Source of the DNA: a virus
IMG/VR virus record: IMGVR_UViG_3300023276_001265
Strand: one strand, 5' to 3'
Length of the DNA stretch: 64,000 bases
Shown here: positions 4,194-64,000 of the stretch, piece by piece
How the letters are laid out: each line of letters opens with the position of its first letter
Numbering within the stretch: the first letter of the stretch is position 1
Made by a program: the position numbers and the translations under genes
The notes under the pieces: generated by a model
Databases searched by the model: none
Told to the model about the DNA's origin: nothing
What the model saw: the letters and a program-made list of their open reading frames with translations, nothing else

Positions 4194-6782
4194 TTAGGTG
4201 GAAAGCCTCAGTGAAACTGACTCGTAGAACACCTGCTCGTCGTGAAGAGCACGCAGCTCAGTGATGATGATGTCGAGACGACCGGGGTGGAGATTGACGT
4301 GCTCACCGAGCCACCCACGGAACAGGGCCAACATGTCGTCTTCAACGAGACGCTGATCTTGATTAGGATCATGCTCGCGCGTATGAGCACCCTGTTGTCT
4401 AGAAAACCCTTTTAGGGCTGGGTGCAAAACGTGCCATTCTTCATTATGATTTATCGCGTTTTCTGCCCGCTTAGCGACACTGCCTGTTTGTTTCCCCAAC
4501 TTATGGTCGCGCCCAACAATGGAATGCCAAAATGGGTAGTATTCGTGGGACGTGAGCTCTTCACCTTTCAAACCCTTAAGGGAACTGGTGATGCGATCCC
4601 ACTGAGGAATCTGCTTTCTAACAGCGTCCGCCATACTCTTTGAAGTCTTAACCGCCCCCCTCTCTATTTTACTCCTACCAGGCTTTTTAGAACCGGCCTG
4701 CCAATCAGCCATTAGCTTGACCGGATCGAGCTGATTGTTGTTGATCGCAATTCCGGGTGGTGGTTGAACCTCCAACTTATCAACTGAAATTGGTTGGAGC
4801 GCCGGGTGCCCAAGCGTCCGAAGCATGTCACCCCTAGCGGCTACACGCTGGGCATGAGCCTGAGGCTCTTCACCTATGTGTCGCTTAATTTCTGCGTGGG
4901 TATGCCACGCCTGTGTCGCCCGGTCCCGAAGACCATTGAGGATACCTGTCCACGGCCCACTGTGGGTGTAGTTAGGGATCACAGTCCTGAAATAATCAGC
5001 TCCAGAACCTCTCTTGAACATCCCCGCCTCTAACTGACCAGTCTTTGGGTTCTCTACCGCCGGAGCTCCGAGGGTGCTGCGCAACCAGTCCCCCATGTTG
5101 ACGGTGTAGGGCACAACCGCCCCGGTATTTGGATCTTTGTAGGATCGTTCAAAAACCCCAAGCCGCCCTTTGTTTCCACCTAGTCGTGGATCAGTAAGCA
5201 GTCTCTCCGCTCTCGCTAGAGCCCTCCCCTGGTAGGCCTTGATAGCATCTCTCGGCGACATATCTCCGTGTTGGGCCGCATCGAACTCCGAACCCATTGC
5301 GAGTCTACCGAGTGCATCGCCAGCAGCTCGCTGTTTCACAGGGTCGAGAGGTGCGGCCTGCACATCGCGTGCTCTTTCCAGGGCACCTTCTGCATGTTTA
5401 TCAATCGTCTGGTCGCGGGCAACCTGTGCCCGCTCCTTGGGCGTCATAGCTTTAAGTTCTTCAGGAGTGTAACTAGGACGGGCTGCGCCAGTCCCCTGCC
5501 GCCTATCGTTAATTGCGGACCGCAGACCCGCTTCGCCCTGCTGTCTTCCTCGTGCCCCTAAGCCTTCGACCCCCGCTTGACCTTCTATATATCTTCCCAT
5601 GTTCGTCAATTGCTTAACAAAGGTTGAAGCGTGGTCTTGGTGCGAGTCGTGGTCAACTTCGGGGTTTATTGACCCTGCCTCCCACGCCGCCTGCGCTTCC
5701 GCCCTCTTTGCACGGTGTGCATCCATTGCATCAGAAAAACCTGCCGGATCACCTCTAAAATCCTTTTTAACGGGCTCTCGCCCTAGCCCGAGGATAGCGT
5801 CATCGTGGTGCCTGAACTTCGTGGCGATGGCATTCGCCATAGCGGATCGACCGCCAATCGCATTACCCTTACCGGCGGACGGAGTCGCCCATGTGGCAAG
5901 AATCTCTGAAGCCCTAGCATCACTCTGAGGATTACTCTGCCCATCATTTAGTGCAGCAGAGATGTGTGGGTGAAGACGGGTCACCATGTCATTTATATGA
6001 GGCCTTACATTGTCCTCGACGTACTTCGCCGCAGCGCGTTTAGCCTCCGTACGCTGGGCGCGGGTCATGCCTGCTCCATGACCTTTAGCGTGTACCTCCT
6101 TAGCCCCAGCAAGCCCTTTATTGATGGCATGTCCGCTTTGGCGGGCGTCATAGCCCTCTTTGTAGCCCGCAGCGTATTCTCCACCCTCGGCCGGGTCCTC
6201 GTAAGCCTTTCCACGCTTGGATGCCACCCAACCGGCCTGATAGCCCTTACGGTGCTCAGGGGTTCCACTTGCTCCAGATTTTGATGAAGCGGGCTTAGGC
6301 TCCGGCTCCGGCTTTGATTGCGGCGCCTGACCTCCAGATCCCCGCATGAACCTGGCAGCAGCGTCATCATCAGGAAGGGAGCCAGCATCGTCTGGATTAT
6401 CATCGCTACCATCATCGATGAACAATGGCTCTGGTTCTGGTTCTGACTTTGGCTCTGACTTTGGCTCTGGCTCCTCAGAATCTTTGTGAATTTTGCGATA
6501 ACCTGGATCGTTTTTCATTCTCCAATCGTGGATAGCATCGTCGTCTTCATCTTCATCTCCAGCAGCTCTGTCGCGCTCTTCTGCGCCGTCACTCCCATCA
6601 TCAAAGTCATCGTCGTCGTAGTTATCCCAGTCGGGGCCCTCACTAAGGAGCTTCGCCTTGATACCTGGGGATAGGCTCTCCAGAACATCAAGGGTCTTCT
6701 GATACATTCGCTCAAGAACGGCGTTGCAAGAGTAGAACCCGTCAATGCTCTCGGCAATCAATTTGCCTACATCTACTGCCAT
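4194..6782 (-). CDS. Large acidic/low-complexity protein with an RMF-like GYxxG...GYxxGY hairpin; probable processed internal head protein
   Basis: 862 aa; N-terminal KLIAE and KLLSE; D-rich tract; EPKS/EPEP repeats; start overlaps the upstream stop, with AAGGAG SD. Confidence 0.75.
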   Translation of the reverse strand: MAVDVGKLIAESIDGFYSCNAVLERMYQKTLDVLESLSPGIKAKLLSEGPDWDNYDDDDFDDGSDGAEERDRAAGDEDEDDDAIHDWRMKNDPGYRKIHKDSEEPEPKSEPKSEPEPEPLFIDDGSDDNPDDAGSLPDDDAAARFMRGSGGQAPQSKPEPEPKPASSKSGASGTPEHRKGYQAGWVASKRGKAYEDPAEGGEYAAGYKEGYDARQSGHAINKGLAGAKEVHAKGHGAGMTRAQRTEAKRAAAKYVEDNVRPHINDMVTRLHPHISAALNDGQSNPQSDARASEILATWATPSAGKGNAIGGRSAMANAIATKFRHHDDAILGLGREPVKKDFRGDPAGFSDAMDAHRAKRAEAQAAWEAGSINPEVDHDSHQDHASTFVKQLTNMGRYIEGQAGVEGLGARGRQQGEAGLRSAINDRRQGTGAARPSYTPEELKAMTPKERAQVARDQTIDKHAEGALERARDVQAAPLDPVKQRAAGDALGRLAMGSEFDAAQHGDMSPRDAIKAYQGRALARAERLLTDPRLGGNKGRLGVFERSYKDPNTGAVVPYTVNMGDWLRSTLGAPAVENPKTGQLEAGMFKRGSGADYFRTVIPNYTHSGPWTGILNGLRDRATQAWHTHAEIKRHIGEEPQAHAQRVAARGDMLRTLGHPALQPISVDKLEVQPPPGIAINNNQLDPVKLMADWQAGSKKPGRSKIERGAVKTSKSMADAVRKQIPQWDRITSSLKGLKGEELTSHEYYPFWHSIVGRDHKLGKQTGSVAKRAENAINHNEEWHVLHPALKGFSRQQGAHTREHDPNQDQRLVEDDMLALFRGWLGEHVNLHPGRLDIIITELRALHDEQVFYESVSLRLST

Positions 6783-7633
6783 GCGGGTAGCTCCTTCTTG
6801 ATCGCTGAGATCAAGCCCGTTCTGTGACTACGATCCCCCCACGCTTGGCGTGCGTCGATCAGCCGTCTGTAGGTCTCATATTTTCGCGGCAGGTGGGGGA
6901 CCTGATCGCGAATCTCAAACATCCATTCTAGGATGGTAACCGAATCGTGATGCGGCCAGATCACCTGATTGGTTACTACTGATCCCCTGGTGTTGAGTTC
7001 AGCGCTGAGGCGAGACTTTACTGATTCCAGAAACTTAGGACTAGCTCCTGCGATAGATAGACCGACCATCGGCTTACGCCCAGGTCGTGATCCGTTGCTG
7101 TGGTAAACAGATCCATCACCGTCGAATAGTCCGAGCATGAAGTGCTGCATCAGACTTTCAGGAACTAGAGGAAGGTCAACCATCTTTAGGGACTTAGCCG
7201 GAACGACTCCTACCTGGGTGAGCCAGGTGGCCATTCGTGGGCTGCACACATTTAACGTGTAAACGTCGTCTTTGTAGGGACCACGGACACTACCCCCGAC
7301 CAGGGGAAGAACGGATCGCAAGTGGTCACGCCCGCTCTCATGGCTCTGACTAACGGAGAATCCGGTGCCGTTTTTCCTCACGTTCCCATCAGCGGTCAAA
7401 AACCCCACAACGTAGGACAACGACGCCGACCACGACTCGACGAATGCTTCGTTAGGAACGAGATTTGAGCCCCCGGTATGTGGGACTCGGATCTTCCAAT
7501 AACGATTGTTCCGGAGACGTACGGAGGTCCTAGACCGACCAAGTTGGTCGGCCACAGCTCCAAGATCACGGCTCTCCTCAAGGAGGAGACGGCCCAGAGA
7601 ATTATCGTCTGACGTCCAACGCTTACCGGGCAT
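6773..7633 (-). CDS. Free-standing LAGLIDADG homing endonuclease with N-terminal HTH
   Basis: Two LAGLIDADG motifs (YVVGFLTADG, FMLGLFDGDG); GVVPAKS motif; C-terminus LISAIKKELPAWQ duplicates the end of the upstream gene. Confidence 0.9.
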   Translation of the reverse strand: MPGKRWTSDDNSLGRLLLEESRDLGAVADQLGRSRTSVRLRNNRYWKIRVPHTGGSNLVPNEAFVESWSASLSYVVGFLTADGNVRKNGTGFSVSQSHESGRDHLRSVLPLVGGSVRGPYKDDVYTLNVCSPRMATWLTQVGVVPAKSLKMVDLPLVPESLMQHFMLGLFDGDGSVYHSNGSRPGRKPMVGLSIAGASPKFLESVKSRLSAELNTRGSVVTNQVIWPHHDSVTILEWMFEIRDQVPHLPRKYETYRRLIDARQAWGDRSHRTGLISAIKKELPAWQ

Positions 7634-7677
7634 CGCTATTGCCAGTTAGGCAACTCCTTCTTTATGGCAGAAATAAG
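6815..7677 (-). mobile_element. Homing-endonuclease cassette with a replacement 3' end of the ParB-like gene (boundaries approximate)
   Basis: Flanked by recoded duplicates 7636-7677 and 6773-6814 encoding LISAIKKELP(N/A)WQ*. Confidence 0.75.
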
Positions 7678-8541
7678 GAACTCATTGATCTGATCTGAAT
7701 TTGCCTGGCAAGTCTCGACCAACTCGCCAATTAGTTTATTGAGATGCGCCGTCTCGTTGACGACCAAGTGGGTGTGACCGGCAACGCCAAAGTAGAGATA
7801 TCCCTGGGTGCACGTATCTGCGCTCTGTTGCAGGACGTCCATCTGGAACGCCTTCAGTGATGTCAGCAGGGCCCTTTGATCGGCGAAGGCCTTCTTCTTA
7901 CCCTTGCCCGGCTGGGTCGTGACTTCGTTACCTTCGTCATCCTTTGGGGGACGGCGCTTATCTGGAGAGGCTCCAGTGTTGGCCTGCTCTGATGGTGTCT
8001 TGGAGTTCGAGGATCCGCCGCCGACCTTCGCCTTCTCCACTTCGACCATCGTGTCAATCACTTCTTGGCTGTAACGCTTCTTGAGATCCTCCATTCGCTC
8101 TTCACGAACGAGCATGCGCCGACGCGCAGCCTCAGATGAGATCCCCCACTTGCCAGTGATCTTCTTCTGAAGCTCTGCGTAACGCGTCCGGTTGATCTTG
8201 CCCCGGATGTTGTTCCGCTTAACGCTCCACTCCATGAGCGCTTCTTCGTCCGCATCAGAGAGGTGCTCTTTGACGACGCACGGCATGTGCGTCATCTCAA
8301 GCGCCAGGCACACCTTCTTACGGTGCTCACCACCGAGGAGACGGAACTTTCCTTTGTCCTCCCCCTCAGTGATAGGAACAACCTGTCCAGGCTCATCGAA
8401 CCCGCCGTCCCTGACTGCTTCAAGTAGGGCCGCAAATTCAGGCTCGTCCATCTCGTTCACGTTCCAGTCGCACAAGACTAGAGCATCAACGGGAATTAGA
8501 ACGGCACCCTCCCAGGTTGCGAATGACGCGTTTTTAGACAC
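7636..8541 (-). CDS. ParB/Sulfiredoxin N-terminal domain protein
   Basis: WNVNEM..EFAALLEAVRDGGFDEP..LLGGEHRKKVC..MPCVV. Confidence 0.85.
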   Translation of the reverse strand: MSKNASFATWEGAVLIPVDALVLCDWNVNEMDEPEFAALLEAVRDGGFDEPGQVVPITEGEDKGKFRLLGGEHRKKVCLALEMTHMPCVVKEHLSDADEEALMEWSVKRNNIRGKINRTRYAELQKKITGKWGISSEAARRRMLVREERMEDLKKRYSQEVIDTMVEVEKAKVGGGSSNSKTPSEQANTGASPDKRRPPKDDEGNEVTTQPGKGKKKAFADQRALLTSLKAFQMDVLQQSADTCTQGYLYFGVAGHTHLVVNETAHLNKLIGELVETCQANSDQINEFLISAIKKELPNWQ

Positions 8542-41073: not shown

Positions 41074-42510
41074 ATGATGTTTCAAGCAAGACAAATGCTG
41101 ACAGAGAACATGGATGGTGTTGCTCTGTCGGACGACAGTGTGGTCGGCGCCTACACGCGCAAGTGGGCCCCGGTACTAGAGGGCATGGAGCACGAGATCG
41201 CGGATTTCGTTCCTCCAGGCCATACCTCCTACGTGAAGAGCATCGCTGCCTTCATGCTGGAAAACGAGAGTAAGCACCTTCGCCGTCTCTCTGAGGAAAC
41301 CCGCGCCTTGTCGGTCGGCCCATTCCTCAAATTCGTTTTCCCCGTTATCAGGCGAACCGCGATTCGCTTGGTTGCAACCTCGATCGCATCGGTCCAGCCC
41401 ATGACGGGCCCGATCGGTGGCATCGCGTTCTACCGTCCTCGCTACGCTTCTGACAAGGGTCAGATCACGGCTGGCACGGAGATGAACAAGAACTTTAACC
41501 GCTGGTATTCCAGCAACTTCATCGACGGCGAGCCGTTCGGCACCGGCGATGGCGTTACTGCTACCTTCACGGGTGCCCTCAAGTGGCCTCCAGTGATCGG
41601 CGGAACGGTTCAGATTCGCACCCAGGCTGGCGGAACGGCTGTCCTCGCGGTTGACGCCGGTGGCACCTTCACCGCTCTGGCTGGCGCCATGGCTGGTGGT
41701 TCTGGAACCATCAACTACACCACGGGCACCGTCACCCTCAACTTCGGAACCGCGCCTGCGCTCGGTGACACGGTCGAGGTCTTCTACCGGTACAACAACG
41801 AGCTCAACGCTCGTATCCCGGAAGTTCAGCTGGACATCACGATCCAGGAGATCCAGGCCGAGAGCCGCAAGCTCAAGAGCCTCGCCAGCGTCGAAGCCGC
41901 TGATGACCTCCGCGCCCTCTGGGGCCGTGACGTCGATGCGGACCTGGTCGCCCAGATGTCCGATGAGATGACCGCTGAAATCGATCGCGAGATCGTCGGC
42001 ACGATTCTTAACGGTGTCGAGTCTGCCGCCATTGTCCCTTGGGACCGTGCGACACCTTCGGCCGTTTCGGATCCTGAGCACCTCAAGTCGCTCGTGATCC
42101 GCATGTCGACTGCCTCGCAGGTCATTCACCGTCGCACCCAGCGTGCACCGGCCAACTGGGCGATCACCTCGTCTGAGGTCGCTGCTCTTCTGGAGACGAT
42201 GGAAGGCTTCTCGGCGATTGACGAAGGTCACGTCTACCAGGGCGGCATCAGCAAGGCTGGTGTTCTCAACCGCAAGTGGGTCATCTACGTTGATCCTGTC
42301 TTCCCGCAAGACAAGATCCTCATGGGGTATCAAGGACCAAGCATCCTCGATACGGGCGTCATCTACTCGCCCTACATCCCGATGGAGATCACGCCGAACT
42401 TCGTTGATCCAAATGACATGTCGCTGAGGCGTGCCATCCGGACCCGACACAAGATCTCGATGGTTCGTCCTGAATTCTTTTCTATGGTTAACATCACAAA
42501 CCTTGTCTAG
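41074..42510 (+). CDS. Major capsid protein (T4 gp23-like)
   Basis: KWAPVLEG; SVQPMTGPIGGI; AESRKLK; EAADDLRA; EIDREI; YSPYIP; RTR motifs. Confidence 0.95.
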   Translation: MMFQARQMLTENMDGVALSDDSVVGAYTRKWAPVLEGMEHEIADFVPPGHTSYVKSIAAFMLENESKHLRRLSEETRALSVGPFLKFVFPVIRRTAIRLVATSIASVQPMTGPIGGIAFYRPRYASDKGQITAGTEMNKNFNRWYSSNFIDGEPFGTGDGVTATFTGALKWPPVIGGTVQIRTQAGGTAVLAVDAGGTFTALAGAMAGGSGTINYTTGTVTLNFGTAPALGDTVEVFYRYNNELNARIPEVQLDITIQEIQAESRKLKSLASVEAADDLRALWGRDVDADLVAQMSDEMTAEIDREIVGTILNGVESAAIVPWDRATPSAVSDPEHLKSLVIRMSTASQVIHRRTQRAPANWAITSSEVAALLETMEGFSAIDEGHVYQGGISKAGVLNRKWVIYVDPVFPQDKILMGYQGPSILDTGVIYSPYIPMEITPNFVDPNDMSLRRAIRTRHKISMVRPEFFSMVNITNLV

Positions 42511-42552
42511 GCAAGGGGTTAGGTCCTAGACCTGACCAGTGTGACCAAGAAG

Positions 42553-42579
42553 AAGCCCACCCTTCGGGGTGGGCTTTTT
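42553..42579 (+). terminator. Rho-independent terminator, possibly bidirectional
   Basis: AAGCCCACCC-TTCG-GGGTGGGCTT followed by TTT. Confidence 0.9.
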
Positions 42580-42584
42580 CGCAT

Positions 42585-43445
42585 CTACAGGTGTTTCCAG
42601 GATCGCTGATATTTGATGTCGCCGATGGTAGCCGAGTGGACGCCGAACTCTTTGGCCAAGACGATGTTCTTCTCGCCGGAATTCAATCGCTCGCGGATTG
42701 CTATTACGTCCTCCGGCTGCAGCTTAGCCTTTCCGGCAGATGCGCCGCGTGCCTTTCGGCCTCGGCCACGCGCATACATGTCCTCAAGGTTCTTGCGCTG
42801 TGTCCCGCCGACTAGGTGCTGTGGGTTCACGCACCACGGTTCATCACATTCGTGAAGAACGAACAGTCCGTGCCCATATCCATTCGCGAGGGCGTAGCTG
42901 ATCTTGTGGGTATCGACCGTTTTCCCGGAGATCCGAAGCACTCCATAGCCTCGACCATCAGCGAACTGATTCTTCCTGGTGGCACCGATCCATAGCCAGC
43001 ACTCGTCTGGGGCTCCTTTATCGACGTAGGACCAGAACCTGTCCTCGTCAGGACCAGTGAGCTCAGGGATGGGCTTAGTAGGTCTGTGCGGCCTGTAGAC
43101 CTTCGGCTTGGCCGTGCCCTTACGCCAGTGGCGGCCCGCAGCCACCATCTGCTGCATATTTTGTAGGTGCGTTCCAGGGCTCAGGTGAGCAGGATTGCAG
43201 CAGGACCTAACGTGGCAGCTGTGGAGCGCGTCTAAGGGCCCCAGGACCTTACCGTTGCCGAGGATGTAGGCCACGCGGTGCGCTCGGTAGAGCTTTTTCC
43301 TGACCCTCCAGAGGCCATACCCGTGGGCCTTGCTCTTGGCGATCCACGGCCAGCACTGATCGGGCCGCAGTTTCTGCACCTTAGCCCAGAATCGTGCTTC
43401 TTCTTGAGATTCGAGCTCTAGGAGGATACTCTCGCTGGCAGCCAT
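42585..43445 (-). CDS. HNH homing endonuclease with two tandem HNH (His-Cys box-like) domains and a C-terminal HTH
   Basis: RFWxxV..CWxW..GYG..HxxxY..LHxCxxxxCxNPxHL, twice; LAKEFGV..WKH. Confidence 0.9.
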   Translation of the reverse strand: MAASESILLELESQEEARFWAKVQKLRPDQCWPWIAKSKAHGYGLWRVRKKLYRAHRVAYILGNGKVLGPLDALHSCHVRSCCNPAHLSPGTHLQNMQQMVAAGRHWRKGTAKPKVYRPHRPTKPIPELTGPDEDRFWSYVDKGAPDECWLWIGATRKNQFADGRGYGVLRISGKTVDTHKISYALANGYGHGLFVLHECDEPWCVNPQHLVGGTQRKNLEDMYARGRGRKARGASAGKAKLQPEDVIAIRERLNSGEKNIVLAKEFGVHSATIGDIKYQRSWKHL

Positions 43446-43529
43446 GTGGACCCTCTCCGGTCTGCTGGTCAGGGCCGGTATAAGGTGTTAGCGCACCTTT
43501 CCCGGCTCGTCCTATGGGTATAACACATC

Positions 43530-44540
43530 ATGGGCTTAATAGACATGACAGGGAAGAGGTACGGCAGTCTCCTAGTGGTCAAGCGAGTCGATCCTCCTCC
43601 GGAAGCTGGGCTCTACATAAGGCAGCACGCACACTGGCTGTGCGTATGCGACTGCGGCAACGAGAAGGTCATCCCAGGTCGCCACATGAGAAAAAATGGC
43701 GTCCGGACGTGCGGGCATGATCTTAGTGAACGTAGGTCGGCGGCCCGCCGAGACCACGGTCTGACATATACCGTGGAATGGTATACCTGGAGTGGGATGA
43801 GCGCTCGTTGCTACAACCCAAACAGTGCGTCTTATGGGCGGTATGGTGGTCGCGGAATCAGGGTGTGCGACCGCTGGAGGGGGAAGAATGGGTTTCGCAA
43901 CTTCTACGAAGACATGGGAAAGCGCCCGTCCGATAAGCATTCAATAAATCGCATCGACAACGACGGCAATTACACTCTCAAGAACTGCGAGTGGGCGACT
44001 GACACAGAACAGGCTAACAACAAGAGCTCCAACCGCCGACTTACACTTGGTGATGAAACGCACACACTCACCGAGTGGGCTCGCATAAAGAGCACGAAAC
44101 CGCACGTGTTCTACAATAGACTGAACGCGGGGTGGTCTGTTGAGAAGACGCTGACTACCCCGGCCCGCGTTAATGTCATGAACCGTAGGCTGACTGCAGA
44201 CGAAGTTCGCGAGATCAAGGCCTGGCTGCGAGACAATCCAGCCAAGAAGGACGTAGATATCGCCGGTGTCTATGGAGTCAGCATCGACACCATCGCGAAT
44301 GTTCGGACAGGAAAAGCATGGGACCACGTTGTAGTTGAGGGATTTACTCCGCACAGGAAGATCCCAGTCTTCTCTGGTGAGAACAACCCTCGCGCAAAGA
44401 TGAACTGGGCCAAGGTCAGAGAGGTTCGAGCACGAGCCGCACAGGGAGAGAAGGTGTCTGATCTAGCGGAAGAGTTCAAGGTGGGTCGCTGGATCATCAG
44501 TGACATCGTAAATCTACGAACATGGAAAGAGGCCAGATGA
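43530..44540 (+). CDS. HNH homing endonuclease with two C-terminal HTHs
   Basis: DMTGKRYG..WLCVCDCG; YGGRGIRVCDRW; SINRIDNDGNY..NCEWAT..QANN. Confidence 0.9.
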   Translation: MGLIDMTGKRYGSLLVVKRVDPPPEAGLYIRQHAHWLCVCDCGNEKVIPGRHMRKNGVRTCGHDLSERRSAARRDHGLTYTVEWYTWSGMSARCYNPNSASYGRYGGRGIRVCDRWRGKNGFRNFYEDMGKRPSDKHSINRIDNDGNYTLKNCEWATDTEQANNKSSNRRLTLGDETHTLTEWARIKSTKPHVFYNRLNAGWSVEKTLTTPARVNVMNRRLTADEVREIKAWLRDNPAKKDVDIAGVYGVSIDTIANVRTGKAWDHVVVEGFTPHRKIPVFSGENNPRAKMNWAKVREVRARAAQGEKVSDLAEEFKVGRWIISDIVNLRTWKEAR

Positions 44541-44564
44541 TTCTCTGGCACTGCAGCCTCTCTG

Positions 44565-44594
44565 AGCATGGTCAACATCACAAACCTTGTCTAA
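44565..44594 (+). pseudogene. Displaced duplicate of the major capsid gene 3' end
   Basis: AGC ATG GTC AAC ATC ACA AAC CTT GTC TAA versus TCT ATG GTT AAC ATC ACA AAC CTT GTC TAG. Confidence 0.85.
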
Positions 44595-44613
44595 CCGACG
44601 GTCGGCGATTGCG

Positions 44614-44641
44614 AAAGGTCACCCTTCGGGGTGGCCTTTTT
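44614..44641 (+). terminator. Rho-independent terminator, paralogous to 42553-42579
   Basis: AAAGGTCACCC-TTCG-GGGTGGCCTTTTT. Confidence 0.9.
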
Positions 44642-44652
44642 GCATGTACGGA

Positions 44653-47713: not shown

Positions 47714-47799
47714 GATAGGCTAAGATGAGCTGATGCTCGCACAAAACTTCAATCTTATTGAAGGTTCGCTCTACCGGTCCCCTCTAAGGCTGATGGAAG
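47714..47799 (+). repeat. 86-bp exact direct repeat, copy 2
   Basis: Identical to 46661-46746. Confidence 0.95.
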
Positions 47800-48875: not shown

Positions 48876-50526
48876 GCCCCTACTAAATCTGATAGAAGGG
48901 TCACTCTACCGGTCCCCTCTGAGACTGCTGGAAGCGCTGCAGGGCGAGCGTAAGCGCTCGTGGGACCTCGGCTATCGCCACTTCAAGAGATACGGGCCTG
49001 ATGGCTTCGATGACAGTAAGGCCGTTGACAAGGCCGCTTACAAGGTCGGATTTGATGGCGCAAGAGAGGAAGCCTCACAGGGAGCCTCACAAAGCGGACT
49101 TCGCGAGGTAAGCCGCGCTTCAGCTGTCCAAACACTGAAAGCCCTTCCGAGGGGTCTTCTGGCTGGATGGTTCAGGAACGCGGACCGAAAATACAAGGCC
49201 ATGCTCCTGAACCACATCAAGAAGAATCCAGAGGTTCGGAACGCCGGGCTGAACATCATGCACCAGGAATACCAGTCCATGACCAGGTCTCAGGTGCCGT
49301 TTGATGAGTTCATGGACACCCCCATCAGAATGTATCGAGGGGGTGGATCTCCTGCGGACGAGGCAGCCACGTCCTATTCCATGGACCAGAAGGTCGCCGA
49401 CTCATTCGTAGACCGGAAGGGCGCTGGTCTGTCTGTGATAGAGATCAAACCAAGGGATACCCTTGGGTCCTATCAGACCACCGCTGAGACTGAGGTTTTG
49501 ATTCCCTCGTGGGAAGGGAAGGACTTCATGGACGGTGACCCGCAGTTTAGAGGCCGCTCGAACTATGAGCTCCAGGCTGCAATCGGGGACACGAAGGCAG
49601 AACTGCGTCAGGACCGAAGCAGGTTGCCTGAGCTAAAAGCTCGCCACGGGGCCCTTCGTAACGAGCTCAAGGTTAGAGCTGCATCTGGCCATCAGAGCGT
49701 GAACCCTTACGATGTAGACCTGGAAGACGAGCGTAGAGAAGACGCGTGGGAACTAGGACGGTCTCACCGCGTAGACGGTCTCCCTAGAGACCCTGATCAC
49801 GCCGATGTCCGGCACAAAGGAGGTTATGAGGAAGGGTATAGTTCCGCCGAGATGAGTAGGGGTCAATTCCCCCAGGCTTCATGGGATGCAGGGCATGCTG
49901 CTGCCGATGCTGGAGAACTGGCCGATCGCCACCATCCGGACGTAGAAGATCCCAATGTCTACTTGAATGGCTACATGGCCAGTATGAATAAGCGCCCAGA
50001 TCCAAGGACGTCCGATCCGAACTATACCTATACGCCAGCCAACGATAACTATTACGACGTCGACCCAAATGATCACATCCAGCTACTAATTGATAGGTGG
50101 CAACAGGAGGAGCAGAGGCCTCGTCACGGAATAGGTCCTTTAATGGTTCCAGTTCACGAACTTTGGCCACACCGAGAGTATCTGCGCAACCCTGAACACA
50201 GTCGCGGTGGCGCCGAGCATTGGCATCAACTGAAGAAGAAGATGTCAGATGAGGGGTGGAATTCAGAGGAACCACTCGAACTACGCGTAGGCAGCGACGG
50301 GGGTGTGAAGATCGGCGAAGGAAATCACCGGCTGGCTATATCGAGAGAGCTAGGAGTCGACAAGGTGCCCGTTGATGTCGTCTACGATATAGGGCGTGTG
50401 ACGAAGAGTCCCCAGTCAACGCGTAGGACGCTCCCTAAAGAGAAGCCTCCAGAGTGGATGACCAAGGAACCCGGACCAGATAGCGATGAAGACCCGTTGA
50501 TTAAAGAACTATCAGGCCTATTTTGA
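48868..50526 (+). CDS. Multidomain protein: tag, RMF-like hairpins x3, ADP-ribosyltransferase-like domain, ParB/Srx domain
   Basis: R-S-E pattern MYRG..TSYS.D..VA..F..ETEVL; IGEGNHRLAISRELGVDKVPV. Confidence 0.75.
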   Translation: MTRPLLNLIEGSLYRSPLRLLEALQGERKRSWDLGYRHFKRYGPDGFDDSKAVDKAAYKVGFDGAREEASQGASQSGLREVSRASAVQTLKALPRGLLAGWFRNADRKYKAMLLNHIKKNPEVRNAGLNIMHQEYQSMTRSQVPFDEFMDTPIRMYRGGGSPADEAATSYSMDQKVADSFVDRKGAGLSVIEIKPRDTLGSYQTTAETEVLIPSWEGKDFMDGDPQFRGRSNYELQAAIGDTKAELRQDRSRLPELKARHGALRNELKVRAASGHQSVNPYDVDLEDERREDAWELGRSHRVDGLPRDPDHADVRHKGGYEEGYSSAEMSRGQFPQASWDAGHAAADAGELADRHHPDVEDPNVYLNGYMASMNKRPDPRTSDPNYTYTPANDNYYDVDPNDHIQLLIDRWQQEEQRPRHGIGPLMVPVHELWPHREYLRNPEHSRGGAEHWHQLKKKMSDEGWNSEEPLELRVGSDGGVKIGEGNHRLAISRELGVDKVPVDVVYDIGRVTKSPQSTRRTLPKEKPPEWMTKEPGPDSDEDPLIKELSGLF

Positions 50527-50553: not shown

Positions 50554-50865
50554 CTATTTGAACTTGAGGTGGATCCGGTTACCAGTCTTCGGGTGTTCCC
50601 AGTAGTGGATCGTAACCTTACTCCCACCACTGGCCCGAGAGACGGCCTGACCTTTTAGGTGCCCCCTACGCTCGTCCTTACGGGTGCCAGGCTCGCCGCC
50701 TGGGTGAATGATGTGTTTACCCGTTCTGTTGTCCCGAAGGAATGACCCACCGTGTCCTGCCTGGACCGCACTTTTGAACATGTGCTCGTGGGTGTTGTTA
50801 GGCTCCTCACGGTAGGCCTGACCCTCGGCGATCAGACGAAGCGGAGATCGATGTAGCAGGGCCAT
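50554..50865 (-). CDS. Tagged miniprotein with a polymorphic-toxin-like C-terminus
   Basis: MALLHRSPLRLIAE; ends KVTIHYWEHPKTGNRIHLKFK. Confidence 0.65.
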   Translation of the reverse strand: MALLHRSPLRLIAEGQAYREEPNNTHEHMFKSAVQAGHGGSFLRDNRTGKHIIHPGGEPGTRKDERRGHLKGQAVSRASGGSKVTIHYWEHPKTGNRIHLKFK

Positions 50866-53243: not shown

Positions 53244-54653
53244 TTAGTTCCCACTCTCACGACCGCCGCCAGGGGCGCGACGTCCGCCTCGTCTACGGCT
53301 GTTCGTGCGACCACGACCGCCCCCCTCATGGGGGCGGTGGCTGGTGCGGTTGCTGCCACGATTTCTGCCGCTTTGGGGATTATCATCTGCCCCGCCGCCT
53401 TGGGGGTCCTTACGCTGTCCAGTTCTAGCCCAACGCGGCTCGCCACGACCCGCAGGACCTGAGAATTCTCCAGGAGATGTATCTGGTTCTGGACGGGACG
53501 CTTGCCGGTCGCCCCTACCTTGGCGGGTGAATCTCGCATGGTAGCGATCGCGATCCTGCTGTCGAGCACTGGCTCTCTCTTGAGTATCCTTCTCATGCTC
53601 TGCCGAACTACCGTCAAACTGAGGGTAGTCTGGGTGTCCTGGGTAACCTGGATGGTTCTCGTAACCGCCTATGACCGGAGCACTATCGTCGTCGTAGTCA
53701 TCGTAGTCGAAGCGTCGATCGTCGTAGTCATAATCGTCATCGTAGTCATCGTAGTCGGCATAGTGGTAGCGATCGAGGTCATCGTCATCCCCGTTAGCCA
53801 GACGTGCCGCTCTCTGTGCTTCCCTGTCAGCCGCTTCAACGTCTCTCTGGCGTTGATCTATTACCCTTTTCCTCTTAGCCGCCCTAAGCGTTGTCTTCCG
53901 ATCAGGAATTCTTTCGACGTCCGCGTCGGACAGACCACTGATGTCCGAGTTCTTCTCACGACCACTAAGCGTCGACCGAACATACTTTTCATCGTAACCA
54001 CGATCTGTGTAGTGGTTGACAATTCGGTCGCGTTCCGCCTGGCGTTCCCGCCCGTAACGGCCAATCCCTGGATTACCCTGTGTAAACGCGTGCCCAATGT
54101 GTTCTGGGCTATGAGGAAGAGCGCGAGGCGTCTCGTTGTCATGCGGCTCGTAGATGCGCGGTCCGTGTGGGTGATCCCAGTTAATCTTGCTCCCCTTCTT
54201 GGAATAGATGGGCGAGTTTTCTACCTCTGGAGTTCGGGCTATTTCTGCCCGCTTAGTCCAGCGATCCGATGCTGGGTTAGCGTCATGGTCCCAACTGACT
54301 TTATTCTCCGGCTCCATCTCTTCAGGACTTTTGGTGTTGTATTGATGTTTATCCGGGTCGTCATCACCAATACAGGTGTTGTGCTGTGTTGCCTTAGAAC
54401 CTGAAGGGCACTTACCACCGTTCCACTGAGGACGAGTGAACCAACCCTTACCGTTGAAGCGCCAGTTGTGTTCTTTATCTGGAGGACCAGCACGCCTCTT
54501 CTCATGACCGGCCCGCTGTTGGGCGTGCGTATCTGTTGGATCTGCGGCTGCTCGACGCTCAAGTGCGCGGAGCCCACGATCCATCTCGCTGAGCAATTTC
54601 AACGGTGATCGACCGATGGAATCTAGAAGGATGAGGCTGGATCTGGTGAGCAT
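53244..54653 (-). CDS. Tagged disordered protein with D/Y-rich and R/G-rich tracts
   Basis: MLTRSSLILLDSIGRSPLKLLSE; TATACT 7 nt before the ATG. Confidence 0.75.
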   Translation of the reverse strand: MLTRSSLILLDSIGRSPLKLLSEMDRGLRALERRAAADPTDTHAQQRAGHEKRRAGPPDKEHNWRFNGKGWFTRPQWNGGKCPSGSKATQHNTCIGDDDPDKHQYNTKSPEEMEPENKVSWDHDANPASDRWTKRAEIARTPEVENSPIYSKKGSKINWDHPHGPRIYEPHDNETPRALPHSPEHIGHAFTQGNPGIGRYGRERQAERDRIVNHYTDRGYDEKYVRSTLSGREKNSDISGLSDADVERIPDRKTTLRAAKRKRVIDQRQRDVEAADREAQRAARLANGDDDDLDRYHYADYDDYDDDYDYDDRRFDYDDYDDDSAPVIGGYENHPGYPGHPDYPQFDGSSAEHEKDTQERASARQQDRDRYHARFTRQGRGDRQASRPEPDTSPGEFSGPAGRGEPRWARTGQRKDPQGGGADDNPQSGRNRGSNRTSHRPHEGGGRGRTNSRRRGGRRAPGGGRESGN

Positions 54654-54929: not shown

Positions 54930-54966
54930 AGTTCAGACCAGTGCTTCCTTTGGGTATACTTTGGTC

Positions 54967-56604
54967 ATGTCCAAGCATCACCTCAATCTGATCGAAGGCT
55001 GTCTCTACAGGACACCTCTCATTTTAGAGGCGAAATCGCCGACCGACATGTCCTGGGACCTCGGCTTCCACCACGCCAATCGTGGCAAGAAGGCTGAACC
55101 TAACGGCCCCACCGTCAGCGACGGTGACGCCTACATGGCTGGGTATAACCACTCCAGGCAAAAGGTGACAGCCGCACAGCCGGATCACGGTCAAGGTGGC
55201 GACCAAGAACTACGTCCCTCTAACTGGGCCGATAGTCGACCAGAACAGGACATCAAACCCAGTATGAGACTCAGTCTCCACGATGTGCCTAAATCCGTGC
55301 TAACCCTTGCGAAGGCCCTCGAAGCGGCTGGAGGGCGTGCGCTTGTGGTTGGTGGAGCGGTACGTGACAAGATCATCGGCAGCTCTCCGAAGGATTGGGA
55401 CGTCGAAGTCTACGGGATGGACCCGGACAAGTTGACGGAGGAGCTTTCCAAGCTAGGTCGAGTTGACGCCGTTGGAAAGAAGTTCGGCATCCTGAAAATC
55501 GTCATTGGGGACGAGGACTTTGATGTGTCGATCCCTAGACGTGAGAATAAGGTGGGCCAAGGACACAAAGGCTTCATCCCCGTCCCAGACCCGACAATGA
55601 CGATCAGTGAGGCGGCTAAGCGGCGCGACGTCACCATCAACACCGTGTCGATGGATCCGTTCACCGGGGATGTCTACGACCCCTACAACGGGGTCGATGA
55701 CATCAACAACCGCGTACTAAGGGCCACGGACCCTGAAGCGTTCGCCGAAGACGCGGTTCGGATACTTCGCGGTGCCCAGTTTGCCGCCCGATTTCAACTC
55801 TCTGTAGATCCTGAGACGATGCAGCTAATGGCGGACGCCGCTCCGGAACTCGCCCTTGAGCCCCCGGAGCGCGTTGGAGATGAATGGCGGAAGCTCCTGC
55901 TAAAGAAGGGCGTAAAGCCGTCTATTGGCATGGAGGTGCTAAAGCGGTCTGGCGCCCTGAAGATCCTTCACCCCGATCTCGCCTCTCAGGCTGATAGTGA
56001 GTCCTGGGAAAGGCTTAAGCAGGTCACAGATCGTTCGATTGGCCTCACCGCCGAGTCGGAAGAAGACTTCAAGGTAATGGTTCGTTTTGCGTCAGTGTTC
56101 CACAACACTAATCCGCGTGGAATGGCCAAGATGCTCCACTCAAGTCTGAGGATTCCTAAAAACTCTGGGCAAGCGATGAGGATCGAGCGACTGGTCGGAG
56201 CGCTACCTCACGCTAACAGCGAGATGTCGGACGCTGATATCCGACATCTGTCCAAGCGTCTTAGCCCTAAAAATATCCAAGACCCGACTAACACATCAAT
56301 CGAAGCCTTCGCTCTCCTGGTCGGGAGTGTTCGCGGTGAAGAAGAAGGAGCACAGCTCCTTCAAAGGGCAGAAAATCTAGGTGTGAGCAAAGCGCCACCT
56401 GTTGAGCTCTTCACAGGAGATCACCTGAACAGTTTCGGGGTTAAGCCCAGTCGGCAGTTCGGAGAGATCCTTAGGCAGGTCTACAAATTGCAGCTAGACG
56501 GCCAGGTTGTAGACCTTGATAGCGCGAAGGTAGCCGCCAGGCAACTCGCCGGGCTTCCTCCAGAAGATCCAAGCCAGCAGCGAGAATCGCTCAACCTGAT
56601 CTAA
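54967..56604 (+). CDS. cca: Class II tRNA nucleotidyltransferase (CCA-adding enzyme) with tag and RMF-like hairpin
   Basis: VGGAVRD..KDWDVE; RRDVTIN; EDAVRILRGAQFAARF; PERVGDEW. Confidence 0.88.
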   Translation: MSKHHLNLIEGCLYRTPLILEAKSPTDMSWDLGFHHANRGKKAEPNGPTVSDGDAYMAGYNHSRQKVTAAQPDHGQGGDQELRPSNWADSRPEQDIKPSMRLSLHDVPKSVLTLAKALEAAGGRALVVGGAVRDKIIGSSPKDWDVEVYGMDPDKLTEELSKLGRVDAVGKKFGILKIVIGDEDFDVSIPRRENKVGQGHKGFIPVPDPTMTISEAAKRRDVTINTVSMDPFTGDVYDPYNGVDDINNRVLRATDPEAFAEDAVRILRGAQFAARFQLSVDPETMQLMADAAPELALEPPERVGDEWRKLLLKKGVKPSIGMEVLKRSGALKILHPDLASQADSESWERLKQVTDRSIGLTAESEEDFKVMVRFASVFHNTNPRGMAKMLHSSLRIPKNSGQAMRIERLVGALPHANSEMSDADIRHLSKRLSPKNIQDPTNTSIEAFALLVGSVRGEEEGAQLLQRAENLGVSKAPPVELFTGDHLNSFGVKPSRQFGEILRQVYKLQLDGQVVDLDSAKVAARQLAGLPPEDPSQQRESLNLI

Positions 56605-59227: not shown

Positions 59228-60931
59228 ATGGCCCACACTTCGACCGATACCAACACCTACATTGGCGTTCACGTAGGCGCCGCCCTTAGCAGGGCAGCAA
59301 ACAAGTACAAGACGCTCTGGGAGGCCATTCTTGAGGCCATTCAGAACGCCATTGACGCGGGGGCCAGGAAGGTCAACGTCAACATTAACCAGCAGACCCA
59401 TACCGTCTACGTCCATGACGACGGCGAAGGGGCCTCTGTAGAGCACATGAACGCGGCCCTGTTGCTGGTCGGCAACTCCCTGAAGCCGAAGAGCGAGGGT
59501 AAGCTCGGCCAGTTCGGAATTGGCGTCATCGCCAGCTTTGGTAAGTGCGAGCGCTTCATCTTTACGACCACCCCAATTGACGGTAGTAACGGCACCAAGA
59601 AGTGGACCTTTGAGTGCGCGAAGCTGAAGAAGCTCTCTAACACTGGCCGCATTCCGTGCGTGGACGTTACGAACGATCAGTGGTGGCGTTCTGAACTCAT
59701 CATCAAGAACTACACGAAGGATCAGCTGCGTTCAGCCATCAACTTCGACGAATTCTGCACCGCCATCTACGACCGCTACAACACCGCCATGCTGCGGTCG
59801 CCGAAGACTACTGTCTTCGTCAAGTTGACGACCCCCGACGGCAAGCACCACGCGGCAAAGCTGACGCCGCTGAACTACACGGGCAGACCTCTGAAGGTTT
59901 GCACCTACGATAGTGACATCTGTGGGCAGACCACGATCCGCATGTTCATCGCTAAGAAACCTCTTGGGGCGAACAAGAAGCGTAAGGGCCGCGTCAAGCT
60001 CATGGACTCGACGGGTTACACGATCCCCCTCTCTGACAAGGCTCTGTCTCACCTCCTCACCAAGAAGGACGTGAACACTCTCACCAGTGGCTACTTTGAA
60101 GGCGAAATCGTCTTCTCCGATAAGCTACGGGTAGACCCCTCTCGTAGATTCTTCAACGAAGACGAGATCACGCTTGAGGCCACGAGCCACATCGAACTGT
60201 GGTTGAAAGATCACGGGCGCAAGCTCATCTCCAAGATGGAGGATGAGGAGTCGATGACTCGTTACCGGAATCTCGGAATTGGCTCGCTCAAGATTATTCG
60301 CAGCCTGGCGTCGTCGATGGGACTTAAGCACGTCCTCAAGTGCCCTAGCTGGGGCCACCAAGGCGATGCTCACACCAAGAACAACGCCGAGCGTAACGGC
60401 AAGATCGCCGCTACGTCCATTGATGGGACCGGCAAGCGGACTCCCAAGGACAAAGACAAGGACAAGACCAAGACGCCACGGAAGCCTAGAGAGAAGAAGG
60501 CTCACAACCCGCTTGCGGTGGGCGGAGGTGATAAGTCTAGAACTCAGGTGAAGGATACTTCCACCGGACTGATTCTCGATTTCGTCCCCTCTGACAAAGA
60601 GGCTCTTTGGACATTTGACAATGTGAATGGGATCATCGCTATCAGCATCAGCCACCCTGTGTGGGTAGAGTCCGATCGCCTTGAAGGGACCACTGAAGGC
60701 GTTCGCAATTTACGTCTCCAGCATCTCCAGGAGCGGATCATCCTCCACGTTCTCGTAGCTCTGAAGCTGGAACAGGACAAGAACGACGGAGGCATCCTGG
60801 TCAAGCCCGACGCCTACGCTCAGGAATTCGTTAAGTACGAGCACTTTTTAACCATCCAGGCAGATCGTATTGCCAAGCGTGGCCGCTTCCGCCAGAGCGG
60901 AAAGCACACGTTCGGAGGAGAGAACAAATGA
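59228..60931 (+). CDS. GHKL (Hsp90/MORC-like) ATPase
   Basis: EAIQNAIDAGA; HDDGEG; GKLGQFGIG; AGGAGGT SD. Confidence 0.85.
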   Translation: MAHTSTDTNTYIGVHVGAALSRAANKYKTLWEAILEAIQNAIDAGARKVNVNINQQTHTVYVHDDGEGASVEHMNAALLLVGNSLKPKSEGKLGQFGIGVIASFGKCERFIFTTTPIDGSNGTKKWTFECAKLKKLSNTGRIPCVDVTNDQWWRSELIIKNYTKDQLRSAINFDEFCTAIYDRYNTAMLRSPKTTVFVKLTTPDGKHHAAKLTPLNYTGRPLKVCTYDSDICGQTTIRMFIAKKPLGANKKRKGRVKLMDSTGYTIPLSDKALSHLLTKKDVNTLTSGYFEGEIVFSDKLRVDPSRRFFNEDEITLEATSHIELWLKDHGRKLISKMEDEESMTRYRNLGIGSLKIIRSLASSMGLKHVLKCPSWGHQGDAHTKNNAERNGKIAATSIDGTGKRTPKDKDKDKTKTPRKPREKKAHNPLAVGGGDKSRTQVKDTSTGLILDFVPSDKEALWTFDNVNGIIAISISHPVWVESDRLEGTTEGVRNLRLQHLQERIILHVLVALKLEQDKNDGGILVKPDAYAQEFVKYEHFLTIQADRIAKRGRFRQSGKHTFGGENK

Positions 60932-61638
60932 CCGACACTGACGCACAGATTGCGCCGACCCTGCTAGAGCGGGTGATCGACTACACGAATATCCTCGACA
61001 TGGAACGGAAGAGAAAACTCGCCGACTTTGTCGGCGTCCAACCGCAGACCGTCCGTCAATGGCAGAGGGGGAAGTCCGTACCGATGGGGCGAAGGGCCCT
61101 CCAGCTTCACTACCTACTCGAATGGGTAGGGTATGGAGATCATCAGTGGAGAGAGACGAACGTCTCGGCTGAGATGGTAGGCAGGTGCTTGGCATTTGGC
61201 CTTATCTCTGACGAGAAGCTCCTAGATGCGTTCAAGGGTGAATGTGATGAGCCGACCAGAATCACGCAGATTTTGAGCGGCCATAAGCACATCACGCCGA
61301 GAAGCCAAGAGATCATCAACGACCTGGCCGATGAATTTAGTTGGCACGTCCAAGACGCCCAAACAAAATGGGCGTGTCTCAAGGTCTCCAACGAAAAGGA
61401 ACGACTGCTCTCTGAGCTAGCTACTCGTCTCCGTAATATCCTGCCGCTGGTCAAGGACATGGTCTCGGACAACTGGTCCGAGGGAGATCGCTATGAACTC
61501 CGAGATCGTGCCGGTACCTATACCGTGTTTGAGCTCTACCACGCTATGGGTGCTCTTTGCGGAGAACGTATGCGGCAGGCGAACGAATCTGATCGCTCCG
61601 AAGCTGCACGGGCGGCATTGATGATCACAAAGGAGTAG
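60928..61638 (+). CDS. XRE-type HTH protein
   Basis: RKLADFVGVQPQTVRQWQRGKSVP; ATGA overlap with the ATPase gene. Confidence 0.75.
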   Translation: MTDTDAQIAPTLLERVIDYTNILDMERKRKLADFVGVQPQTVRQWQRGKSVPMGRRALQLHYLLEWVGYGDHQWRETNVSAEMVGRCLAFGLISDEKLLDAFKGECDEPTRITQILSGHKHITPRSQEIINDLADEFSWHVQDAQTKWACLKVSNEKERLLSELATRLRNILPLVKDMVSDNWSEGDRYELRDRAGTYTVFELYHAMGALCGERMRQANESDRSEAARAALMITKE

Positions 61639-62353: not shown

Positions 62354-62611
62354 GTCAATCTCCTCTGTTGAGAGTATTCAATCTACATCAGAAGGGTAAC
62401 TGATGCCACAGAAGTGCCGAAAACAATCGAGCCGCCCAGTAGGCGGCTCGACCGCCCTATGACGGCCCTCACCCGCGCAGGGTGAGTTACCTAGATGGTC
62501 CCAATCATTGATGCTCTTCGCAAGGGTCTAGCGGGGCATCAGGCCTTATGATGTGCTATGTAGTGGTGTCGGCAGGAAAACGCTAAACTGACGTCACCCC
62601 AGGAGCCTCTA

Positions 62612-63331
62612 ATGGGCATGACCGAAGACGAAATCAAGGCTTACGTTCTCCGACGCCTGGGCTCTGGCATCATTGACGTCGAGCTGACTGGCGCTATGCA
62701 GAATGACGTCATCAAGGACACCAAGCGCTGGTTTGGATTCCGTGTTGGCCAGAAGCGAGTGGTCCAGATTCCGCTCACAACAGCTACTAACGTCTACATC
62801 CTCGAACCGGACGTAACTGAAGTTCTGCGGGTGTTCCTACCGTCATCCCACTTTCCAGCTGTGGATACAGACGACTTCTCTTACACCTATTCGCTCCTAT
62901 TCGGACAATGGCGCTCCCCAGGAGCATCACCAATGCCGTATTCCGACCTCATTCAGCGCCTCCAATACCTGAATGTGAGCAAGAGGATCTTTTCTGCGGA
63001 CCGTGAATGGACCTATGACAGGGACACGCATGAGCTTCAGATCATGCCCCGCCCATCCATCGTGGGCAACGCGCTGATCGAGGTGTGGACTAAGGACATC
63101 GATACGCGTCAATTCGGCCCAGAAGACGAGGACATCTTCCTTCGCTACTCACTGGCGCACTCTAAGACGTTCCTCGGTGAGATCCGATCGAAGTACGACA
63201 GCATGTCTATGGTCGGAGGGGATCGGAGCCTGAACGGTGAATCCCTGCTTGAGGCTGCTAAAGCGGAGAAGGAGCAGCTTGAGAAGGACGTGATTAACTG
63301 GAGGAGAGCTACCCCACTCATCATGGAGTAG
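62612..63331 (+). CDS. Neck/head-completion protein (T4 gp13-like)
   Basis: IKAYVLRRLG..IDVELT; LGEIRSKY..LNGESLL.AAKAEKEQLE. Confidence 0.85.
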   Translation: MGMTEDEIKAYVLRRLGSGIIDVELTGAMQNDVIKDTKRWFGFRVGQKRVVQIPLTTATNVYILEPDVTEVLRVFLPSSHFPAVDTDDFSYTYSLLFGQWRSPGASPMPYSDLIQRLQYLNVSKRIFSADREWTYDRDTHELQIMPRPSIVGNALIEVWTKDIDTRQFGPEDEDIFLRYSLAHSKTFLGEIRSKYDSMSMVGGDRSLNGESLLEAAKAEKEQLEKDVINWRRATPLIME

Positions 63332-63884
63332 AGTCGTTTATATGAGCAAGTGGAGACCAATTCCTGGGTTTGACGGTTACTGCGCTTCTGCGGATGGGGA
63401 GATTTTCTCTGCAAAGAGGAACGTAGTAATGAAGCCTCAGAAGATGTCGAACAAACACAACGCTCGCCATCTTTACGTGGGACTCTACCTAGGTAAAGGG
63501 CGGCGCATGCGCCGTGGGGTGCATCAACTTGTGGCATTAACTTACCTGGACCCCAAGCCGACCACGGAGCACGAGGTCAACCACATCAACGGCGATCCGA
63601 CGGACAACCGGTCGACGAATCTGGAATGGCTCACCAGGGCTGAAAATGAGGCGCACGCTGTAGTCAATAGGCTCAAGGCCAGCGGTAAGCGACATGGCAG
63701 GAGCACGAAACCAGAACGAACGGCACGCGGCACGCGGCATGGCCGATCTAAGATCACCGAGGACATCGTTAGGGAGATCAGAACTTTCAGAGAAGAAGGA
63801 GTAACCGAGCCGGTATTGGCAGAGAGGTTTGGAATCTCCAGATCGCTGGTAGGTCAGATCGGGCGCTGTGAGATCTGGAAACAC
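63290..63884 (+). mobile_element. HNH cassette with a replacement 3' end of the neck gene (boundaries approximate)
   Basis: VINWRRATPLIME* encoded at 63290-63331 and 63885-63926 with different codons. Confidence 0.8.
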
Positions 63885-63926
63885 GTAATCAACTGGCGCC
63901 GTGCAACTCCTTTGATCATGGAGTGA
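63342..63926 (+). CDS. NUMOD4-HNH homing endonuclease with C-terminal HTH
   Basis: WRPIPGFDGY..S..G.I; VHQLVA..VNHINGDPTDNRSTNLEW.T..EN. Confidence 0.92.
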   Translation: MSKWRPIPGFDGYCASADGEIFSAKRNVVMKPQKMSNKHNARHLYVGLYLGKGRRMRRGVHQLVALTYLDPKPTTEHEVNHINGDPTDNRSTNLEWLTRAENEAHAVVNRLKASGKRHGRSTKPERTARGTRHGRSKITEDIVREIRTFREEGVTEPVLAERFGISRSLVGQIGRCEIWKHVINWRRATPLIME

Positions 63927-63929
63927 TAG

Positions 63930-64000
63930 ATGCCTACGCATAAGCTCCCCAATGGTTTTCCTGAACCAGATTCGCTGATTCGAGACCCTAAATGGAACGA
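63930..64000 (+). CDS. Partial next gene of the neck operon
   Basis: ATG 6 nt after GGAG; MPTHKLPNGFPEPDSLIRDPKWN.. open to the window edge. Confidence 0.5.
   Translation, partial: MPTHKLPNGFPEPDSLIRDPKWN

Follow-up and report, generated by a model that had tools for sequence, protein, structure and literature searches.

In fungal mitochondria, open reading frames (ORFs) known as mORFs carry a foreign C-terminus for the gene that they invade; the first was found in atp6 of Allomyces macrogynus, and others followed in atp6, atp9, cox2 and nad3 of Glomus sp. (PMC3630166, citing Paquin et al. 1994). In phage T4, the free-standing HNH and GIY-YIG endonucleases (Seg and Mob, e.g., SegF, SegG and MobE) are an established case of intronless homing, in which the genes spread through the repair of breaks and flanking markers are co-converted, and their HNH members nick the targets (PMC2988022). 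Here, we analyzed a stretch of 64,000 nucleotides (nt) of viral DNA (IMG/VR record IMGVR_UViG_3300023276_001265; the whole stretch is called the window), at the end of which a phage neck gene is followed by an HNH endonuclease gene with the same C-terminal peptide. We read positions 63295-63902 as a free-standing homing-endonuclease cassette in the coding end of the neck gene, of the fungal mORF type and without intron or intein, and give this reading a probability of about 0.85.

The host of the cassette was assigned to the marine T4-like phages on the grounds that the window encodes gp13, gp23 and a prohead protease and that the source runs of matching contigs are metagenomes of seawater or marine origin; no deposited phage matched the locus in blastn. 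The neck protein belongs to the Pfam family Phage_T4_gp13 (PF26809), the profile of its own family matches T4 gp13 structures (E = 2e-11), and most of its 110 homologues in the database are exactly 239 amino acids (aa) long. Its ORF (62612-63331) and the HNH ORF (63342-63926) have a common end of 13 residues, VINWRRATPLIME, followed by a stop codon (TAG in the neck gene, TGA in the HNH ORF). The two tail copies (63290-63328 and 63885-63923) are identical at 13/13 residues and at 28/39 bases; the 11 unlike bases affect 8 codons, and every change is silent. In none of 200,000 simulations of 11 random substitutions in the tail was the peptide kept (P < 5e-6). The changes are confined to 25 nt (63295-63319), and the last three codons, which contain the Shine-Dalgarno (SD) sequence, are unchanged: the GGAG at 63920-63923 lies 6 nt 5′ of the ATG of the next gene at 63930. 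The first-pass annotation of this DNA had described both the silently altered common end and the use of the GGAG as the SD of the gene at 63930, and had taken the downstream copy for the displaced end of the neck gene; the first two points hold as described, and the third is borne out by the alleles described below.

Filled and empty alleles of the site occur in one population. Among nine contigs with an identical neck protein, seven bear the HNH ORF (filled), which is intact in all of them, and two do not (empty; represented by L005). In L005, the next gene begins 3 nt past the stop codon of the neck gene. The neck gene of this allele has no mismatch to that of the window over nt 1-683, and then 13 of the final 37 nt are unlike; the 11 coding changes are all silent, and the stop codon is TGA instead of TAG. 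Aligned to the downstream copy in the window, the tail of L005 shows four silent differences (tail nt 3, 6, 9 and 18) and is identical from tail nt 19 on. The left flank has no further differences across 1,822 nt, and the right flank beyond tail nt 18 has three in the remaining 1,866 nt. The background divergence between the two alleles is therefore about 0.25% (flanks about 99.75% identical), compared with 35% and 22% in the two patches of dense differences that hug the HNH ORF (37 nt on the left and 18 nt on the right). Because the tail of L005 matches the downstream and not the upstream copy amid so low a background, the downstream copy is, on this alignment, the resident neck tail, displaced by a net insertion of 595 nt, and the upstream copy came with the nuclease. 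The opposite order of events, in which the empty allele is a deletion product of recombination between the two copies in the window, was rejected; its Ile and Asn codons match neither copy.

Both alleles were also found in sequencing runs. Runs X6, X7, X8 and X10 yielded low-depth contigs (2-4x), in which uncovered stretches and allele ratios carry no weight, and evidence was taken only from a junction contig of X7 and from HNH-bearing pieces. The contig of X7 (from another study) joins the neck-gene body to the resident tail (its loose end reads neck-gene sequence immediately 5′ of 63883) and carries the same four-letter signature as L005; the HNH is without cover in this run. Runs X6, X8 and X10 contain HNH-bearing pieces. 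Separately, a contig of X10 follows the window over 63719-63949, from the 3′ part of the HNH through the displaced tail to nt 20 of the next gene. Beyond this point, it reads as a diverged allele of that gene, of the L-P-E-G-W-P-D type also seen in other relatives; this switch may mark a recombination boundary just 3′ of the cassette, although one contig at a depth of 2.5 gives a hint only.

The origin of the upstream tail can be traced among relatives that lack a homing-endonuclease gene (HEG). Among 23 tails compared, the one closest to the upstream tail of the window is the single tail of L025, a HEG-less relative (4/42 differences); the resident tail differs from the upstream tail at 13/42 positions, while the downstream tail is nearest to that of L005 (4/42). 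The 3′ half of the tail of L016, likewise HEG-less, is one base off the upstream tail, and TGG-AGR for the Trp-Arg codons, as in upstream tails, is the majority state in HEG-less relatives. As natural alleles of relatives already have these codons, the seemingly recoded tail is best read, from the comparison of tails, as a natural allele imported from a related lineage, which would make the neck gene a hybrid; its de novo recoding was largely set aside. A version in which the tail was duplicated locally when the HNH inserted, and the upstream copy was then recoded by selection (for escape from self-cleavage or for less deletion between direct repeats), would agree with the identical peptide of both copies, including a lineage-typical Leu, and with the packing of the changes into 25 nt that spare the SD-holding codons. 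We nevertheless think it improbable, given the closeness of the natural tails of L025 and L016 and the common AGR-type codons, and given that, at a flank divergence of 0.25%, 11 changes could not have built up locally in the time available if the block does not move as a whole.

The layout is present in three lineages. The HNH protein has few close relatives, and the nearest two, P0112 (79% identity, locus L012) and P0113 (61%, L013), are each encoded between the gp13 gene and the next gene of other phages and each run in frame into a gp13-type tail. Functional and displaced tails are unlike at about 9 bases both in L012 (all silent) and in L013 (all but one silent). The functional tails of the window, L012 and L013 all read TGG-AGR, and their displaced tails, together with the empty allele, all read TGG-CGC-CGY. 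At three of the four positions where it is unlike the empty allele, the displaced tail of the window agrees with that of L012, which suggests that the cassette takes along the initial 18 nt of the displaced tail. More distant HNH homologues stop at W-x-H(V) or a few residues beyond, from which it follows that the gp13 tail on the HNH is an add-on; as the first-pass annotation had noticed, the usual terminus of the enzyme runs directly into the duplicate, and the valine at the junction probably belongs to the nuclease, judging from these termini. In a blind check of six deposited phages with distant HNH homologues, no tail duplication was detected and only chance 6-mers were common (a method based on exact 6-mers may miss diverged repeats), so that the layout is not a property of this HNH family as such. 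In 15 further metagenomic gp13 loci, no nuclease was found at the site, and the next gene begins 1-15 nt past the stop codon of gp13.

The 194-aa product of the HNH ORF had been named a NUMOD4-HNH protein. Its HNH part is secure (Pfam HNH_3, PF13392, 42.2 bits against a cut-off of 24.8, residues 59-103), whereas NUMOD4 (PF07463) scores 19.4 bits and stays under the cut-off of 23.4; close homologues score for NUMOD4. The only solved relative by sequence is I-HmuI (PDB 1U3E; E = 8e-8, residues 3-104 aligned to I-HmuI 2-98), which is also the sole significant match in Foldseek (E = 1.4e-7, 184 columns). The AlphaFold model, built on the homologue alignment (mean pLDDT 76), has a confident NUMOD4-like N-terminus and HNH core (1-108), a disordered basic linker (113-135) and a three-helix helix-turn-helix (HTH) domain (140-174); of the appended gp13 tail (182-194), residues 185-194 are unstructured in the model (pLDDT < 50). 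H81, N89, N93 and N102 are invariant in an alignment of 10 homologues and align with the H/N positions of I-HmuI (beta-beta-alpha-metal site).

That I-HmuI is intron-encoded might suggest that a group I intron or an intein interrupts the neck gene, with the tail copies as alternative exon ends. This explanation is barely credible, because positions 62500-64000 gave no Rfam match at E <= 1 and the insert contains just 10 non-coding nt, which excludes an intron, and because the TAG that closes the neck ORF before the HNH excludes an intein; the neck protein, as in HEG-less relatives, already has its full length of 239 aa. The GC content of the HNH ORF, overall and at third codon positions (GC3), is that of the phage, and AGR arginine codons are commoner in it than in six phage genes. 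The matching GC and GC3, and the intactness of the ORF in all filled contigs, would also suit a phage gene that has been domesticated and is not mobile, for example an accessory of packaging or repair such as the HNH proteins associated with terminases, with the tail repeat as the scar of an old rearrangement. We regard this as very improbable, since presence and absence of the HNH vary among near-identical genomes, the 15 related loci lack it, it adjoins the neck gene and not the terminase, and its architecture is of the I-HmuI homing type.

The HNH start codon lies 10 nt past the neck stop codon, with a GGAG 13 nt upstream of the start, and resembles in this arrangement the weak, coupled starts of the T4 free-standing endonucleases (PMC2988022). 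A promoter and terminator scan of the cassette yielded no promoter-like site and one weak terminator-like match, on the opposite strand and within chance expectation. RNA folding over the HNH start, compared with shuffled sequences, gave no significant hairpin (z = +1.1) and thus no sign of a translation-locking structure. The nuclease would presumably be expressed by read-through of the late neck transcript.

We propose that the cassette consists of four parts: a substitute for about 12-13 codons at the end of the neck gene, closed by its own stop codon and keeping the neck protein at full length; a 10-nt spacer; an I-HmuI-like NUMOD4/HNH/HTH ORF without a stop codon of its own; and the first about 18 nt of the displaced tail. 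The resident tail, moved 595 nt downstream, still provides the next neck-module gene with its GGAG and stop/start junction and is read in frame onto the nuclease. The nuclease would recognize a site that extends across the junction in alleles of the TGG-CGC-CGC type that lack the HEG, and would nick or cut them there or nearby, at around neck nt 680-700; repair would copy the cassette from a co-infecting, HEG-bearing genome, with the neck body on one side and the displaced tail plus the next gene on the other as homology arms. A filled genome may be immune, as its functional tail has 11 silent differences and its displaced tail is without the left half of the site. Retention of the displaced tail would be explained by its content, namely the GGAG and the stop/start junction used by the next gene; this gene encodes 161 aa in L004, and its initiation region is arranged in the same way in the empty allele.

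Several points weigh against this reading. The homing mechanism as a whole is deduced from sequence, and the clustering of the differences is the only guide to the position of the target. In the displaced tail, the TGG-CGC-CGT core is intact, so that self-immunity would hang on the assumption that the left half-site is required. CGC-type tails also occur in HEG-less alleles of other lineages (L016, L029), i.e., the CGC tail is not always tied to invasion, and a pattern scan of IMG/VR for such tails gave 0 hits, so that their proposed role as the susceptible class could not be followed further. The carried tail encodes the exact resident peptide, down to a leucine that few of the 110 homologues have, which import alone does not predict. 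Finally, no allele frequencies can be derived from the low-depth runs.

The in-frame fusion of the HNH to the tail is probably a by-product that leaves the ribosome-binding site of the next gene in place. Alternatively, the read-through into the displaced tail may itself be selected, in addition to homing and compatible with it: either ribosomes translating the nuclease end at the native stop codon, 3 nt before the next ATG, which would preserve translational coupling and keep the SD unfolded, or the gp13 tail peptide serves as a docking function for the nuclease. An intact tail has been kept in frame in three HNH lineages, down to 61% identity, but one ancestral join accounts for all three, and each homing event renews the tail from a working gene, so that its intactness needs no selection. 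Another nuclease in the window (case (a) below) is likewise fused in frame, and some fungal mORFs are in phase with the native C*-terminus (PMC3630166); on the other hand, case (b) is not fused, and one frame in three is open by chance (the +1 frame meets a TAA at once). Docking would be in line with the strong conservation of the gp13 tail motif across the gp13 family, which makes it likely that the motif is an interaction element, but the tail residues 185-194 are predicted to be unstructured and distant homologues work without the tail. On balance, we consider selected read-through unlikely, although worth bearing in mind.

A six-frame scan for shared peptides found exactly three C-terminal duplications adjoining nucleases in the window: 6785/7648 (minus strand; case (a)), 42481/44565 (plus strand; case (b)) and the neck/HNH locus. 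Three loci with three nuclease architectures and one layout, as the first-pass annotation had counted them, are thus confirmed (Table 1). The nuclease ORF of case (a) is of the LAGLIDADG_3 type, and the displaced tail holds the overlapping ATG of the next gene (4194-6782, 862 aa); in the substitute tail, Asn in place of the Ala of the displaced tail abolishes this ATG. No nuclease is present at this position in a 77% relative (L047). In case (b), the inserts are a double HNH_3/zf-His_Me endonuclease ORF (42585-43445, minus strand) and a 336-aa ORF (43530-44540) without a Pfam match, which ends in ...TWKEAR and in this recalls the W-x-H with which HNH homing enzymes terminate. The gp23 tail, with its terminator hairpin, is present twice, and the displaced copy is intergenic and unfused; in the relatives L034-L037, a terminator hairpin lies directly 3′ of the gp23 stop codon. 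From these arrangements, the same retention logic appears to hold at both loci. When gp23 and the product of the 300-aa gene in case (a) were looked up by exact protein identity, no empty-site contigs with DNA were returned.

Table 1. Coordinates of the features at the neck-gene locus and at the two further loci in the window.
Feature	Position	Strand	Remarks
gp13-like neck gene, 239 aa	62612..63331	+	best read as a hybrid: resident body (nt 1-683) plus carried replacement tail
Carried (substitute) tail, 13 codons plus TAG	63290..63331	+	departs from the empty allele L005 at 63295 onward
10-nt spacer, neck stop codon to HNH ATG at 63342	63332..63341	+	spacers of 9-10 nt at the same place in L012 and L013
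I-HmuI-like HNH endonuclease ORF, 194 aa	63342..63926	+	Pfam match; sequence and fold matches to 1U3E
Displaced resident neck tail plus TGA, in frame as the HNH C-terminus	63885..63926	+	63885-63902 would move with the cassette; 63903-63926 equal the empty allele
Putative mobile block, all bases separating the filled from the empty allele	63295..63902	+	608 nt; net insertion 595 nt
Native translation-initiation region of the next gene	63920..64000	+	GGAG, TGA and TAG stop codons, ATG at 63930; partly within the displaced tail
Case (a): 300-aa gene with substitute tail (7636-8541); LAGLIDADG ORF (6773-7633) fused in frame to the displaced tail	6773..8541	-	
Case (b): gp23 capsid gene (41074-42510) with tail and terminator, two ORFs, second tail and terminator (44565-44650)	41074..44650	+	

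The first-pass annotation had also seen in the three loci a general non-splicing homing strategy that is not described as a class in phages. Non-splicing is upheld, as no intron or intein was found; generality is not, at least for the HNH family (0/6 deposited phages). Gene-end replacement as a systematic third way, beside introns and inteins, for HEGs to reside inside essential phage genes, with the read-through selected (for coupling or for a gp13 docking peptide), strikes us as doubtful. As to its novelty, a literature search of incomplete coverage found no phage paper that describes the gene-end-replacing layout, which is weak negative evidence, and the class is known from fungal mitochondria (mORFs, PMC3630166).

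Some other features of the window were noted. Six ORFs with otherwise unrelated bodies (46680-47690, 47733-48875, 48868-50526 and 54961-56604 on the plus strand; 53244-54653 and 50554-50865 on the minus strand) begin with a common N-terminal leader, about 20 residues long and with the core NLIEGSLYRSPLRL and then M/L-E, and two of them show 100% identity over their first 75 nt (46671-46745 and 47724-47798). One of the six is a nucleotidyltransferase of the PolyA_pol/CCA-adding type. The leader has L-x-E motifs like the cleavage sites of the T4 prohead protease, and a Peptidase_S77 prohead protease adjoins gp23; the six may be capsid-targeted internal or ejected proteins. Just upstream of the neck module (59228-61638, plus strand), a 567-aa HATPase_c_3 gene (GHKL/MORC-like ATPase) is paired with a gene for a 236-aa protein that has a weak Cro-type HTH match, a pair unusual for a structural-gene neighborhood. 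Within the ORF of an 854-aa structural protein (25612-28176, minus strand), the 12-residue peptide IAIDPVTPATIY is repeated at 27133-27301, 132 nt apart and with 81% DNA identity, and is probably a fiber or baseplate repeat.

If the cassette works as proposed, a free-standing nuclease gene can occupy an essential structural gene of a phage at almost no cost, without a ribozyme or protein splicing. For annotation, the layout accounts for short "orphan" repeats of gene ends and for odd C-terminal extensions on HNH and LAGLIDADG genes, and it cautions that a conserved phage gene can end in foreign codons and thus be a hybrid. The filled and empty alleles from seawater, at about 99.75% identity, constitute a natural and directly testable homing pair with a target, a donor and predicted immune variants. 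With at least two more cases in the same 64 kb, this group of phages is suggested as a good system for the study of HEG-driven local mosaicism.

Compared with I-HmuI, an HNH nicking endonuclease from Bacillus phage SPO1, the HNH of the window has the N-terminal beta motif, the HNH core, the extended linker and the C-terminal HTH in the same order and fold, but I-HmuI sits in a self-splicing group I intron, whereas the window HNH has no intron and has 13 extra residues at its C-terminus. With the Seg and Mob endonucleases of T4 it has in common that a free-standing, variably present HEG of a T4-type phage starts near the stop codon of the upstream gene and is adjoined by dense polymorphism. The Seg and Mob genes, however, sit between genes or overlap gene ends without duplicating them, whereas the cassette lies inside a coding sequence, supplies the gene end and leaves the old end as a repeat read onto the nuclease.

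In layout, the cassette matches the fungal mORFs. In both, a conserved gene has an endonuclease ORF inserted toward the 3′ end of its coding sequence and is completed by a carried C-terminus, the divergence of which is mostly silent; the native C*-terminus has been moved downstream and corresponds to the allele of close relatives without the ORF. The hosts differ (an organelle there, a marine T4-like phage here), and the element in the window would function like a mORF but stands outside the fungal elements. The fungal enzymes are of the LAGLIDADG or GIY-YIG type, in contrast to the I-HmuI-like HNH of the window; the duplicated piece here is only 13 codons long, and the ribosome-binding site for the next gene stays within the displaced tail. 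Cleavage by the Allomyces mORF was demonstrated biochemically; that by the phage enzyme is predicted. The phage element is a mORF-like representative of a known kind of homing cassette, and its value lies not in a new principle but in the clean pair of empty and filled alleles and in the conservation of the layout in three lineages.

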